From the IMG/VR virus record IMGVR_UViG_3300017963_000189: a stretch of DNA of 64,000 bases; one strand, written 5' to 3'. Below the pieces are notes generated by a model. It worked only from the letters and a program-made list of their open reading frames with translations, was not told the origin of the DNA and searched no databases. Positions 3,175 through 31,196 of the stretch are shown piece after piece. The position numbers and the translations under genes are program-made. Origin of the DNA: a virus. Its lineage: Duplodnaviria; Caudoviricetes. Position 1 is the first letter of the stretch. Every line of letters starts with the position of its first letter.

Positions 3175-3182
3175 TATAAATA
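3175..3182 (-). promoter_or_regulatory. TATTTATA promoter-like motif upstream of nrdJ
   Basis: One of 13 intergenic copies seen, all in the same orientation relative to the downstream minus-strand gene. Confidence 0.6.
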
Positions 3183-11228: not shown

Positions 11229-12272
11229 CTACTCCTTTGAAGTTTTAGCAAATGTATTTAGTTTATTAAAATTCAGGTTCAACCATGAATCAATGTTTGG
11301 GATGGCACTATAAAGTTTATCTTCCAAGAACAATCTTTTAAGTTGATACCTATTGATTGTACTAACAGGTTCGTCTAAAAGTTCCCTGATTTTAACTTTT
11401 GTTGTACCACTAATTTCTACTTCGCCTAACTTCATTAACTTAAAATTCATCTTTAGTTGTTCTTCGTTTTCCATGATTAATCGGGCGGCTGTGTTCTTTC
11501 CGGGTTGACGATTCGCATACTCCAAAATACTCTCCAATGAAACCTTTTCTTCGTCTAATAATATAGGTAAATGTTTTTGTGCTGTCTTTAATCCTATTCC
11601 CTTTATTCCTGGTATATTATCACTTGAGTCGCCATCTAAAATACGAAAATATATGAGATTCTTTGGCGAAAAATGATAATCTTCCTTGACTGCCTTTTCG
11701 TCGTATAACTTCTTTTTTGTTGGATTCCATACCTTTATCCTATCATCGACAAGTTGTAAAAAATCCTTGTCCGTTGACATTATTACTACTTCCTCTTTCA
11801 ATAACTCCTTTGATACATACGAAATAACATCGTCAGCTTCTATGTTATCATAAATAAACATTTGTAAAGGTAAGTTGTCTAAATAATCTGCTGACCTACT
11901 TATTTGTCTACTCGCTTCGTCAACTTCCTCATCGGGTGTGTGAAAATCGTATGTACGATTTAACCTTACTCGTAAACCTGTTCTATGTGCTTTGTAGTCG
12001 GGATAAATTTTTCGACGGCGAGCTGATCCGCCTTTTCCATCAAATACCACGATACAACGTGTAGGATTTATCGTGCGGATACCAACTGCTATTGTGTTCA
12101 GGAAGCCGACAATACCACCTATATGTGTACCATCGTCATTCATTGCGGGATTTACCGAAAACGCTCTAATGAAATTATTTAAACCATCGATTAATAAAAC
12201 TTTTGAGTTGAGTGATTTGGCGTTTTCGTTTTCTTGTTTAATTTCTTCTAATAGATTATCGATATTAACCAT
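11229..12272 (-). CDS. 5'-3' exonuclease / flap endonuclease (T4 RNase H-like)
   Basis: LIDGLN, VFDG, RRKIYPDYKAHR, EADD, STDKDFLQL, GDSSDNIPGIKGIG. Confidence 0.95.
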   Translation of the reverse strand: MVNIDNLLEEIKQENENAKSLNSKVLLIDGLNNFIRAFSVNPAMNDDGTHIGGIVGFLNTIAVGIRTINPTRCIVVFDGKGGSARRRKIYPDYKAHRTGLRVRLNRTYDFHTPDEEVDEASRQISRSADYLDNLPLQMFIYDNIEADDVISYVSKELLKEEVVIMSTDKDFLQLVDDRIKVWNPTKKKLYDEKAVKEDYHFSPKNLIYFRILDGDSSDNIPGIKGIGLKTAQKHLPILLDEEKVSLESILEYANRQPGKNTAARLIMENEEQLKMNFKLMKLGEVEISGTTKVKIRELLDEPVSTINRYQLKRLFLEDKLYSAIPNIDSWLNLNFNKLNTFAKTSKE

Positions 12273-12288
12273 TTTATTATGTCCTTTA

Positions 12289-12888
12289 TTAGAGTAAAAG
12301 TTTTTTCAAATTTTTATTAAAATGATTGATCAACTTTAAAGAATTTGTCGTATCTCTCCACATAAAATAATGTTCTTCACATCCAGCATACCATTGTGTT
12401 ATTTCTTTTACTCTACATGGATCACGGGTAATATTACCAATAAAAACTGTCCAAAATGGTAAAACATCATTTCCAAGATTACCCTCACTTTTTAATATTT
12501 TTAATAATCCAGGTGTAAAATATTTACATGATCTTTCGTGAGCATTTCCACGACCATCTTGGCGTTTTCCGCCCTCAACCCAACCATCTTGTCGTTTTAC
12601 TTCCACATAAATTGTTTTTTGAGTTTGAGTATTATCAATAGCGTAATCTGGCACGATTCCATGTGTCTCAATCTTTTCTTCTGGAATATAAATTTCTTCT
12701 AATACCTTTTTATCAAGTTCTACATCAACATAAATATTCGTGAATTCTTGCGGACTTTCTCGTATCACAAATTTTGTGTTTTTAAATTCTTGTAAAAAAA
12801 CATTATAAAAATCGTGTTCAGCTATTTTTGCTTTTTTTCCACTATTTTTTTGCCAAGTAGATCTGTTTTTTAATTCTTTTGAGCCCAC
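12289..12888 (-). CDS. munIR: MunI-like type II restriction endonuclease
   Basis: 199 aa, collinear with MunI as recalled: catalytic PD...EVK, EVKRQDGWVEG, recognition motif GRGNAHERSCK, FTPGLL, LPFW, ITRDP, YFMWR. GTG start with AAAGG RBS. Confidence 0.9.
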   Translation of the reverse strand: MGSKELKNRSTWQKNSGKKAKIAEHDFYNVFLQEFKNTKFVIRESPQEFTNIYVDVELDKKVLEEIYIPEEKIETHGIVPDYAIDNTQTQKTIYVEVKRQDGWVEGGKRQDGRGNAHERSCKYFTPGLLKILKSEGNLGNDVLPFWTVFIGNITRDPCRVKEITQWYAGCEEHYFMWRDTTNSLKLINHFNKNLKKLLL

Positions 12889-12898
12889 AAAAACCTTT

Positions 12899-13303
12899 CT
12901 AAGTTGTTTTGTATTTACTCACTATCTTTTGTAAGAAACGAGTTCTGTCGGATAATCTTTTCCAATCATATTCCCAAATAACTTCAATATTGTAACCATT
13001 TTCTTCAGCAGATTTGATTTTCTCTTTATCCTTTTCCCATTTTTCCCAAGCATACCTTTTCTTTACCTTGTCATAAAAATCAGGTGGATAAATGTTTTTG
13101 TTGTAGTGCCACCGATCTCCATTATACTCAATGATTAAATTTAATTCCTTTATGAATATATCATATGGAACGCCATCAAGCATAAATTCATTACGAACCT
13201 TACAGCCGAGTTTTCGAAGTGTCTTAAACACTTCACTGTGACCCTGACTCATTGTCGTTGACCGTCGAACTTTTCTCTTTTTACCACGTTTCTTCTTTTT
13301 CAA
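12899..13303 (-). CDS. DUF559/Vsr-like (very-short-patch family) endonuclease, possibly a free-standing homing endonuclease
   Basis: YDIFIKELNLIIEYNGDRWH...KDKEKIKSAEENGYNIEVIWE; basic N-terminus; TTG start (alternative ATG at Met18). Confidence 0.85.
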   Translation of the reverse strand: MKKKKRGKKRKVRRSTTMSQGHSEVFKTLRKLGCKVRNEFMLDGVPYDIFIKELNLIIEYNGDRWHYNKNIYPPDFYDKVKKRYAWEKWEKDKEKIKSAEENGYNIEVIWEYDWKRLSDRTRFLQKIVSKYKTT

Positions 13304-13305
13304 TA

Positions 13306-13364
13306 TGAATAATCCCGATATGAGTTCTACTATATATAAATAGTGTTCAAATCGGGATTATTCA
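13306..13364 (-). promoter_or_regulatory. 14-bp perfect hairpin sequestering the endonuclease RBS, with a TATTTATA motif (13335-13342) in the loop
   Basis: Arms TGAATAATCCCGAT (13306-13319) and ATCGGGATTATTCA (13351-13364) around a 31-nt loop; no U-tract follows. Confidence 0.7.
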
Positions 13365-13376
13365 CGTTTCTGTTAA

Positions 13377-14519
13377 TTAATCGTCACCAATTATTTCATC
13401 AGTGACTATCATTTCATCCGTACTTAACCCTATGTCCGACTTATCTTTATACTTCATTATTTGAAAATCACAAATCTTGTTGTATAAAAATTCTTTGAAT
13501 TCGGGCTCACTTTCAAGTAATTCGCCCCAATTCTTCGTCTCAAATCGTCTTTCCTCTCCCTTGTGATCAACTATTTTAAATCCAGGGTTGGAACGGGAAA
13601 CTAAATCATTGTCTTTTAAAATCTCTAACCAATTTTCATAGTCATATATACCCCTGTCAAAATAAATGTCAAAGTCGGCGATCCGGTAGGACGGCCCCAT
13701 TCGATTCTTGATTACTTGAGCTCTCGCTTTGATGCCAATTACTTGTTCTTGTGTTCCTATCTTTTGTTTGATTTGACCCATCGCTTTTAACCGGACACGG
13801 ATAGAAGCATGAAACGGCAAACCCTTTCCACCTGAAGTAGTCCAGGGATCACCAAACATTACGCCCATCTTCTGGCGTAACTGATTCGTAAAAATACACA
13901 CAACTCTCTCTTTACCTATCAATCGTGTAATCTTACGAAATGCTGCGGAAACAATTATCGCTTTAGTAGTATTCCAACCCTGCTTCTCATAATCGTTCTC
14001 CATTTCTAATGAAGTTGAAGCAGCTGCTAATGAATCAACTACAATCACTACAAGTTTGTCCTTGTCGGATTCCCTAATAGTTGTAATTATTTGTTCAATA
14101 GTTTGAAATATTTGTTCCACAGTATCAAGTTGGACATATAACATCTTTTCAACATCTACACCAATCGCTTCTAAAAAATCTTTACTTAAAGCATTTTCAG
14201 TGTCAATATAAACACCTACTCCACCTTTCGCCTGAGCACTCGCTATTGAGTGAGCAGCAAGTAATGACTTTCCACTCGATTCTAAACCATTAAATTCTAT
14301 TATACGTCCTGTGGGAAGTCCACCATGCGGGCGGTTAGATATTGCTAAATCTAACATCGAACTTCCGGTTGAAATCCAATCAATCACATCAGTTGGTGTA
14401 TCATCACCAATAAAATGGGCTACCTTTCCATCACTTTTGAATTGTTTGTTCAACACATCCGCTAATGAGTGTACAAGATCGCCCTTTAATTCTTCCTTTT
14501 CAGCTTTCTTTTTCGCCAT
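13377..14519 (-). CDS. uvsX: RecA/UvsX recombinase
   Basis: ISTGS...GGLPTGRIIEFNGLESSGKS, YIDTE, VVDSLAA, FTNQLR, SGGKGLPFHASIR. Confidence 0.96.
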   Translation of the reverse strand: MAKKKAEKEELKGDLVHSLADVLNKQFKSDGKVAHFIGDDTPTDVIDWISTGSSMLDLAISNRPHGGLPTGRIIEFNGLESSGKSLLAAHSIASAQAKGGVGVYIDTENALSKDFLEAIGVDVEKMLYVQLDTVEQIFQTIEQIITTIRESDKDKLVVIVVDSLAAASTSLEMENDYEKQGWNTTKAIIVSAAFRKITRLIGKERVVCIFTNQLRQKMGVMFGDPWTTSGGKGLPFHASIRVRLKAMGQIKQKIGTQEQVIGIKARAQVIKNRMGPSYRIADFDIYFDRGIYDYENWLEILKDNDLVSRSNPGFKIVDHKGEERRFETKNWGELLESEPEFKEFLYNKICDFQIMKYKDKSDIGLSTDEMIVTDEIIGDD

Positions 14520-14534
14520 TTATCCTCTCCAAAA

Positions 14535-14561
14535 TAAAAAATCGGGGAATAAATCCCCGAT
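14535..14561 (-). terminator. intrinsic terminator after ssb
   Basis: ATCGGGGA-N5-TCCCCGAT followed by a U-run on the minus strand. Confidence 0.8.
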
Positions 14562-14567
14562 CATATA

Positions 14568-15453: not shown

Positions 15454-15478
15454 TATAAATATTATACTCTTATAAATA
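15454..15478 (-). promoter_or_regulatory. tandem TATTTATA motifs upstream of ssb
   Basis: Copies at 15454-15461 and 15471-15478. Confidence 0.6.
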
Positions 15479-30486: not shown

Positions 30487-30711
30487 TTATTTCACCTTGT
30501 TTTTCATTAAAAACTTGTGTAATTGTACTGCTTGGGTCGGATGTAAAAATATCATCTTCCCCTCTTTATCCTTTAATACCAAATATCCATCTTCATCAAT
30601 ATGAACTGTCACAGGAACACCCTCACCAAGTTCTTTAGGTTTTAATAATACTTTGTTTGTCGCCTCAGGTATCATGGCTTCTATTACTTCCTTTAATTCT
30701 TCTCTTTTCAT
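30487..30711 (-). CDS. small hypothetical protein, possibly virion-internal
   Basis: N-terminal KREELKEVIE. Confidence 0.65.
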   Translation of the reverse strand: MKREELKEVIEAMIPEATNKVLLKPKELGEGVPVTVHIDEDGYLVLKDKEGKMIFLHPTQAVQLHKFLMKNKVK

Positions 30712-31196
30712 GGTTTATATGTTCCTTTTTTAATTTGTTGGTTTACAAACTTCTCAATGTCTTTAGAATCGGCACCAGTTCTATGTGACGCAATCATCAT
30801 TGTTCCTTTCGCCTTTTCAACGTTCCCCGGTTGATCCCAATCTACATCGCCAGAATATTCCAATGGAATATACTCAATAAGAACAGGATAAGAAGCATAT
30901 GAATTACCACTGATCATATCAAATTTGGGTTTACCGGAAATCTTGAATTTTTTCATAAGAATACCATAACCTTTTCCAGGATTGTTGATTCGTCTCCACC
31001 AACCATCTGTCTCCAAACGATACCAAGCGGTCATTCCATCTATCTTTCTATCTAATGTAAGTTGTACTTTATTTTGATTCGGTGGATCACTCTCTTTATT
31101 AAGAAAATCAACTGCTTCAACTACTAAAGTTCCCTCAGTTAAAAATTTACGCCATTGTTTGTTGTCCATCATTCTCTCCCACAAATAGTTTTCCAT
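30708..31196 (-). CDS. hypothetical protein, possibly virion-internal
   Basis: QWRKFLTEG; start may be Met9/10, which follows GGGAGAG. Confidence 0.65.
   Translation of the reverse strand: MENYLWERMMDNKQWRKFLTEGTLVVEAVDFLNKESDPPNQNKVQLTLDRKIDGMTAWYRLETDGWWRRINNPGKGYGILMKKFKISGKPKFDMISGNSYASYPVLIEYIPLEYSGDVDWDQPGNVEKAKGTMMIASHRTGADSKDIEKFVNQQIKKGTYKP

Follow-up and report, generated by a model that had tools for sequence, protein, structure and literature searches.

Hairpins that pair the ribosome-binding site (RBS) of a gene and carry a promoter within them are known from several phage endonuclease genes. This arrangement has been shown experimentally for T4 I-TevI and Aeh1 mobE, and has been inferred or shown for I-TevII, I-TevIII and segB (PMC2988022). 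Further papers on switches of this type are those of Gibb and Edgell (PMC1913452, PMC2655525), taken here as they are cited in Edgell, Gibb and Belfort (2010; PMC2988022). In the T4 late genes e (lysozyme), soc and 49, an inhibitory helix covers the Shine-Dalgarno (SD) sequence or start codon on long transcripts of the early or middle period, and late transcripts begin within the structure and are translated (Uzan & Miller, 2010, PMC3014915). Here we describe a comparable element in a stretch of 64,000 nucleotides (nt) from the IMG/VR virus record IMGVR_UViG_3300017963_000189 (Duplodnaviria; Caudoviricetes), the whole of which is called the window below. The element is a hairpin between a RecA/UvsX-like recombinase gene (recA) and a small endonuclease gene, with the recurrent motif TATTTATA in its loop.

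A third described system is relevant to the protein. I-Bth0305I, the EDxHD prototype, comes from a group I intron of recA in Bacillus phage 0305phi8-36 (Taylor et al., 2011, PMC3239194; PDB 3R3P).

The window is from an uncultured marine jumbo phage, whose RecA is distantly related to T4-type phage RecA. A blastn search against GenBank phages found no related locus, and the closest GenBank-phage RecA is that of Microcystis phage Mel-JY01 (49%). We propose, with a probability of about 0.65, that the hairpin and its loop motif constitute a cis-regulatory switch of the endonuclease gene, which is inserted between recA and the gene for a FEN/RNase H-like 5'-3' exonuclease (FEN).

The hairpin in the window

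Every gene of the RecA/FEN region is on the minus strand, as are the features described here. The stop codon of recA (TAA, 13379-13377) is followed by the spacer ttaacagaaacg and then by the 5' arm of the hairpin, TGAATAATCCCGAT (13364-13351). The 3' arm is ATCGGGATTATTCA (13319-13306), which is fully complementary to the 5' arm. The inverted repeat is thus perfect over 14 bp, and 17 of 18 positions are paired if an inner 3-bp extension past one U-U mismatch is counted (TGA at 13349-13347, with TCA at 13323-13321). The loop is 23 nt long (13 nt after inner pairing), with the sequence acacTATTTATAtatagtagaac between the inner TGA and TCA. Its 5' half contains TATTTATA at 13342-13335, which together with a downstream N-N-T-R signature forms a promoter-like block at 13331..13342. 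The 3' arm contains the SD-like GGGA (13316-13313), 9 nt ahead of the TTG start codon of the endonuclease gene (13303-13301), and this is the sole SD-like run within the 73-nt gap between the genes. The stem ends 2 nt (ta) ahead of the TTG. An initial annotation, made from the sequence alone, had reported the inverted repeat between the RecA-like gene and the endonuclease, the GGGA as the only SD-like run and the motif in the loop; on direct reading, every sequence detail of it is correct.

The predicted minimum free energy of the hairpin RNA is -27 kcal/mol, compared with -10.4 +/- 2.5 kcal/mol for 200 shuffled sequences, none of which was as stable (z = -6.7). No Rfam family reaches its gathering score, the best matches being generic hairpins only (mir-3156, at 25.8 bits with the cutoff at 76 bits). 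There is no further copy of the arm sequence in the window, and a dispersed repeat family was rejected for that reason.

On the basis of this architecture, we propose the following mechanism. In read-through RNA from recA, the 5' arm would pair with the 3' arm, burying the weak SD GGGA and all but the last 2 nt of the spacer ahead of the TTG, so that the endonuclease would not be translated. The loop would carry the recurrent promoter motif of the phage, TATTTATA-N-N-T-R, in the sense orientation. Transcripts starting about 5-10 nt past the motif, in a zone predicted at 13325..13330 by analogy with -10-type phage promoters, would be without the 5' arm, which is missing from any loop-initiated transcript, and their ribosome site would be open. 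Translation would then be at a low level, because of the weak SD and the TTG, and in the time class of the loop promoter. The context would allow read-through, in that the genes are co-oriented and the terminator scan makes no call in the recA-FEN interval. We infer the firing of the motif as a loop promoter, its timing, and the recA read-through RNA itself.

The energetics were also calculated. On a recA-derived transcript of the window, the computed cost of opening positions -17 to +5 is 21.5 kcal/mol, and on a transcript starting 6 nt past the motif it is 5.5 kcal/mol. Across those loci, described below, for which it was computed, the cost is 14-23 kcal/mol for the long RNA versus 2-5.5 kcal/mol for the short RNA, ranges from which the short-transcript value of one locus (L081) was excluded.

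Conservation of the hairpin in relatives

The same design was found at 13 distinct loci, in the same position, with hairpins of -19.5 to -27.4 kcal/mol and endonucleases that are 55-82% identical to that of the window. It is seen in every close homologous locus and in most distant ones. The stem sequences are unrelated across loci (TGAATAATCCCGAT, TCTCCCGGTGAGTTA, CTCACGGTAGG, TTTTTCGATGAGTTG, TTCCCAGTAAGTTGA and others). Five of the loci, namely the window, L001, L081, L083 and L084, have a common core CCCGAU/AUCGGG and are here called the window subgroup, and the other eight have different arms. MAFFT put the two stem subgroups one column out of register, and covariation was therefore counted for each subgroup separately.

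In the divergent subgroup there is a 12-bp helix with 98.6% of cells paired, in which 7 of 12 pairs have changed on both sides. None of 500 shuffles matches this, and slid controls pair at 28-49%. The window subgroup has 18 pairs (96.7% paired), three of which are double-changed, including one G-C to A-U change between the window and L001, and the U-U mismatch by the inner extension is a pair in L001, L083 and L084. Covariation of the arms, which the initial annotation had suggested looking for in homologous loci, is therefore present in both subgroups (double changes at 7/12 and 3/18 pairs, 97-99% paired), and the pairing of the 5' arm is kept in relatives. Searches with a covariance model of the divergent subgroup gave a weak match to the window hairpin (21.6 bits, E ~0.09) and no convincing hairpin in the endonuclease-free relatives.

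Four features do not vary. In all 13 loci the loop has TATTTAT(A) at its 5' side, the motif is 29-32 nt from the start, the start codon is TTG, and the 3' arm contains a purine-rich run resembling an SD (GGGA, GGA or GAG) at a distance of 8-10 nt from the start. TATTTAT is the sole invariant block of the loop in the 11 aligned loci, the remaining loop being variable. This is exactly the set of constraints that would be expected if transcription starts a few bases past the motif and the 5' arm masks the longer RNA. The compensatory changes in 13 loci, and an SD-like run that is always in the 3' arm, bear out the earlier suggestion of an RBS-masking RNA structure, and the comparison supports the view that the hairpin is a selected structure of this kind.

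One homologous locus is organised differently. At L097:2440-2520 (on the same contig as L109), in a 292-kb relative, there is no TATTTATA, and the TTG start and a GAGA SD are retained. With this locus included, the start codon is TTG in 14 of 14 homologous loci.

These data also bear on the possibility that the inverted repeat acts as DNA, in the form of an autorepression operator, a cruciform, or a border or recombination site of a mobile cassette. I-TevI provides a precedent, since it represses its own late promoter via an overlapping operator (PMC2988022), and in L081 and L083 a perfect 16-nt palindrome, ACTATTTATAAATAGT, lies in the loop over the motif. However, it is the pairing alone that is conserved between subgroups, and not the arm sequences, and the arms are 23-31 nt apart, unlike a dimer operator. 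Moreover, many of the pairs are G-U (25 in total), which on the opposite strand, as in a cruciform, would become A-C mismatches. In 11/13 loci the sense strand gives a more stable fold than the antisense strand; the p value of 0.003 for this is indicative only, the 13 loci being phylogenetically non-independent. The G-U pairs and the better sense fold suggest that the folded molecule is sense RNA, not DNA, and we regard a function at the DNA level as very improbable.

A comparison was also made with loci that have no endonuclease. The gene order gp32-recA-FEN-dnaB is common to 80 related RecA-neighbourhood loci, which were taken from IMG/VR. Among these 80 syntenic loci, L001 alone carries the endonuclease at the recA-FEN junction, and endonuclease homologs with enough flanking DNA are always directly after recA. 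In the endonuclease-free relatives, the gap between recA and FEN is either 0-3 nt, as in several of them, or 214-370 nt, and no gap contains a sense TATTTAT. The element therefore came with the endonuclease, and recA and FEN were probably one operon.

Phage messages often end in protective hairpins, and a stable stem-loop directly after the recA stop codon could accordingly be an mRNA 3'-end stability or processing element for recA, acting as an exonuclease block or RNase III site, with the motif and the SD overlap being non-regulatory. But the endonuclease-free relatives that were examined all keep recA and have no such hairpin, and so the hairpin is not a recA feature. In addition, conservation extends to the motif in the loop, to its distance from the TTG and to the position of the SD, and none of these is needed by a 3'-end hairpin. 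Such a role is improbable, although slightly less so than a role as DNA.

More weight has to be given to termination. According to this explanation the hairpin is mainly a transcription insulator, that is, an intrinsic terminator for recA transcripts with a restart promoter nested in its loop, and the occlusion of the SD is a by-product of having a G-rich stem base beside the start codon. In six loci (L086, L093, L096, L098, L092 and L111) a run of 4-6 U (for example GGGAUUUUUUAUUG) comes directly after the stem and doubles as the spacer between SD and start. A second endonuclease gene of the genome has a textbook stem and U6 around the motif, and at gene 30708-31196 the motif comes directly after a terminator. 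The features of an intrinsic terminator, namely a G+C-rich stem with a short loop and a U-tract directly behind it, are present in the sister loci L086, L093 and L098, and not in the window. There the stem is followed by UAUUGAAAAAG with no U-tract, the loop is as long as 23 nt, and a terminator scan makes no call. None of the 5 distinct loci of the window subgroup has a free U-tract, because an A-rich 5' extension pairs with the U-rich 3' tail. Furthermore, no promoter is evident for FEN and dnaB downstream, FEN being 0-3 nt after recA in relatives, and strong termination in the window would therefore starve essential genes. Finally, the SD-like run is within the stem in 13/13 loci, unlike the ordinary terminator upstream of recA, whose SD is outside the stem.

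We consider it unlikely that insulation is the main role. This explanation does however overlap with the proposed switch, and both could act together. The same hairpin would probably also terminate upstream transcription in the sister lineages, and in the window would do so at most weakly. The initial annotation was right that the window has no U-tract, but the terminator role that it dismissed may exist in sister lineages, whose hairpins have the U-run. We conclude that in the window the hairpin serves mainly for masking, to which termination is added in some lineages.

The start codon

The initial annotation had held up translation from Met18, independently of the hairpin, as contrary to its proposal. 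Twelve endonuclease homologs, 56-82% identical, were aligned. Met18 is found in the window protein alone, the homologs having Y, I, Q, T, K or V in its place. In the closest relative, L001, the codon for Met18 is CAA, and no stop interrupts the frame between it and the homologous TTG. Among the homologs there is conservation of the K/R-rich N-terminal tail (MKKKKRGKKRKVRR...), with in-frame length changes, and a TTG start is found at every homologous locus with readable DNA. Met18 was ruled out as the start because the residue is not conserved, whereas the basic tail and in-frame indel are; the TTG start therefore stands. The weak start codon appears to be a selected feature.

The loop motif as a candidate promoter

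There are 64 copies of TATTTATA in the 168-kb record. Twenty-five of these are in intergenic DNA, which is 3.6% of the sequence, and all 25 are in the sense orientation to the next gene, including the copy before a plus-strand gene. The copies in coding sequence show no bias (20 sense, 19 antisense). In the loci of relatives, intergenic copies are sense in 81 cases versus 16 that are not. The intergenic copies have an extended pattern, in which an A precedes the motif and bases three and four downstream of it are T-R, and the T-R signature is present in all 13 loop copies. Flank scores of the loop copies have a mean of -1.8, compared with -8.1 +/- 4.2 for coding copies, despite the constraint that the stem places on the 5' flank. 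The motif precedes the sheath gene and several fibre genes.

The sense reading of the motif given in the initial annotation is thus supported, by the intergenic copies here and in relatives and by the T-R signature. A promoter of type TATAAATA on the antisense strand was also considered and rejected, because the intergenic copies are sense in 25/25 cases and the copy before the plus-strand gene is turned round along with it. These patterns make TATTTATA a candidate for a phage-specific promoter, although not securely a 'late' one.

Two further observations on promoters should be mentioned. A different, sigma-70-like promoter, aaaacagTTGACA-N17-TATATT, is found ahead of small early-type genes; in the window these early-type promoters are upstream of 4276, 5039, 6653, 8702 and 32293. 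In L081, the 3' arm and spacer (GGGATTATTTATATTG, L081:2985-3000) contain a second copy of TATTTATA, which abuts the TTG start.

The endonuclease

The endonuclease gene (12899..13303) encodes a protein of 134 residues with a Vsr-like, EDxHD-like fold. Its score against PF18741 is below the cutoff, the match to the Vsr/DUF559-like fold is clear, and PHROG families annotated as homing endonuclease match the protein. A sequence-profile search of the PDB gave only noise. The AlphaFold model has a predicted local distance difference test (pLDDT) score of 81.6, and its top fold matches in the PDB are 3r3p, the catalytic domain of I-Bth0305I (template modelling score 0.75-0.78, by target), followed by 1vsr/1cw0 (Vsr). 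Residues D48, H66 and D92 are invariant in the family, and N/Y61 is at the variable position. The first E of E-D-x-H-D is E26 in the window protein and Q in most homologs. This mapping to Vsr residues is based on the pattern PYD...EYNGxRWH and on PMC3239194, and not on a residue-level superposition.

The N-terminal tail of about 17 residues (13253-13303) is extremely basic and K/R-rich as well as conserved, and is modelled as disordered (pLDDT <60). It stands in place of the NUMOD-type DNA-binding modules of longer relatives. A single-sequence pattern search for the endonuclease in IMG/VR found no match, and the homologs were found by an alignment-based search. Judging from the model and the distribution, the gene is probably a minimal free-standing homing endonuclease at the recA-FEN junction.

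Neighbouring genes and cargo

The recombinase gene itself is at 13377..14519 (Pfam RecA, 1e-60), and its transcripts would run into the hairpin. Downstream of the endonuclease, and 10 nt past its end, is a gene for a MunI-like restriction endonuclease (12289..12888; Pfam PF11407, 2e-71), followed by FEN (11229..12272), the ancestral neighbour downstream of recA.

The gene behind the endonuclease varies by locus. It is MunI in the window and a NUMOD3 protein in L086, and there is none in L001. In L083 the cargo is a 209-residue protein and an N6/N4 methyltransferase, and in L084/L085 it is a methyltransferase and Endo VII. MunI is absent from all 80 RecA-neighbourhood loci fetched. The MunI gene has its own SD, AAAGG, 5 nt before its GTG start, and no RNA structure is predicted around that start (z = -0.08). 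Translational gating of MunI by the hairpin, which had been suggested earlier as a possibility, is therefore not supported. The hairpin belongs to the endonuclease and not to a 'nuclease cassette', and the cargo differs among loci. Judged by its occurrence, MunI is lineage-specific cargo, and it is probably co-transcribed with the endonuclease. By the same comparison of gene content, the recA-FEN junction is an insertion hotspot for the endonuclease and for varying restriction, methylase and nuclease genes. In L083 (1775-1848) the cargo gene after the endonuclease has an early-type promoter, aaaacagTTGACA-N17-TATTTT, like the early-gene promoters of the window.

On the other side of recA, an intrinsic terminator (GATCGGGGATTTATTCCCCGATC-like stem and U-run) is located at 14520-14567, between the gp32-like gene and recA. 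The SD of recA is directly past its U-run, with no promoter between, and recA must therefore be expressed by read-through. One relative has a further NUMOD3-type endonuclease-like gene (L081:973-1617) as an insertion separating the gp32-like gene from recA; it comes immediately behind the gp32 terminator and has a free SD, GGAG.

Other motif-enclosing hairpins

When the 64 copies of the motif were ranked by the pairing of their flanks, the hairpin beside recA was the strongest, at -25.8 kcal/mol, against a median of -9.6 kcal/mol.

The second endonuclease gene of the genome (L102:404-1213, minus strand) encodes 269 residues with DUF559 and NUMOD3 domains, and its nuclease domain is 36% identical to that of the window endonuclease. 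The region L102:404-1300 corresponds to G000:C1:166903-167800, about 61 kb past the end of the window. Here TATTTATA is within a terminator-like hairpin with the stem CCGCUUUUUUAUAU/AUAUAGAAAGGCGG, and AAAGG is in the 3' arm, followed by U6 and then by the ATG. Two endonuclease genes of one phage thus have this design in common, like several T4 endonucleases.

A further hairpin of -28 kcal/mol, at L101:4100-4230 (G000:C1:159100-159230), encloses TATTTATA and pairs a GGAG SD. It is situated before a structural gene of >1000 residues that follows a Rad50/gp46-like gene, with 30 nt from motif to ATG. This hairpin (G000 159137) was rejected as a conserved switch, since a 55%-identical homolog in L103 has a different arrangement with a free SD.

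Discussion

Several observations weigh against the proposed switch or limit it. The homolog at L097/L109 (55% identical), 18 nt after recA, has neither hairpin nor motif, and the switch is therefore dispensable for carrying the endonuclease gene. The loop copy of the motif has C in place of the usual A before it, and C is found in only 3 of the 25 intergenic copies, the loop copy included. There are 39 copies of TATTTATA inside genes, and the 8-mer alone is therefore insufficient for function. The motif also precedes the gp32-like gene (two copies, 15454-15478) and the class II ribonucleotide reductase gene (3175-3182), so that 'late' timing is not secure. Of the delayed expression suggested in the initial annotation, RBS masking on the longer RNA is supported and 'late' timing is uncertain. 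A search of the 168-kb record with T4 gp55 (from NC_000866) gave no homolog; as the record is about 78% complete, this result says nothing either way. Lastly, GGGA is a weak SD, and part of the low expression may reflect a poor initiation region.

If the switch operates as proposed, the means by which T4 tames its selfish nucleases is at work, or has arisen a second time, in a remote clade of uncultured marine jumbo phages. The comparative support is unusually strong for an element of 60 nt, coming as it does from 13 lineages with unrelated stem sequences. The element also provides independent, structure-based evidence for the sense reading of TATTTATA, and it predicts the position of the transcription start. 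The promoter class of the clade becomes testable by one small reporter.

A wider interpretation, which we regard as doubtful, can be put forward tentatively. In this, the element is a portable three-in-one insulator of about 60 nt (terminator, RBS mask and internal promoter), travelling with a new family of minimal free-standing homing endonucleases of EDxHD type, whose target in marine jumbo phages would be the recA-FEN junction, with variable cargo comprising MunI, N6/N4 methyltransferases, Endo VII and NUMOD3 nucleases. If this were true, the cassette could sit in an essential replication operon at almost no cost, and the element would be a ready-made, orientation-defining reporter for the TATTTATA transcription system of the clade.

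It remains to compare the locus with the known systems. In common with intrinsic terminators, it has a stem-loop directly after a stop codon, and in sister loci a G+C-rich stem base followed by 5-6 U; unlike them, the loop in the window holds a conserved promoter-like motif and the stem holds the SD of the next gene. The likeness to I-Bth0305I is that of a recA-associated phage nuclease with a Vsr-type catalytic domain, in which D48, H66 and D92 may correspond to the EDxHD pattern. The window protein differs in that it is free-standing behind recA, with 134 residues and a K/R-rich tail rather than NUMOD modules.

T4 e, soc and 49 are ordinary phage genes with TATAAATA promoters, whereas the gene in the window is a mobile nuclease and the evidence here is comparative. 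The closest resemblance is to the endonuclease switches of T4 type. As in those, a stable hairpin pairs the RBS of an endonuclease gene inside a presumed earlier transcription unit, a candidate phage-specific promoter is within the hairpin, so that its transcripts would be without the 5' strand, and the gene is a selfish nuclease gene of sporadic distribution. The differences are in the components. The promoter motif in the window is TATTTATA and theirs is the gp55 motif TATAAATA; the former is wholly in the loop, and the latter is in the 5' strand. The fold of the nuclease is Vsr/EDxHD-like, as against GIY-YIG or HNH, the start codon is an invariant TTG, and the hairpins of the sister lineages bear a terminator-like U-run.

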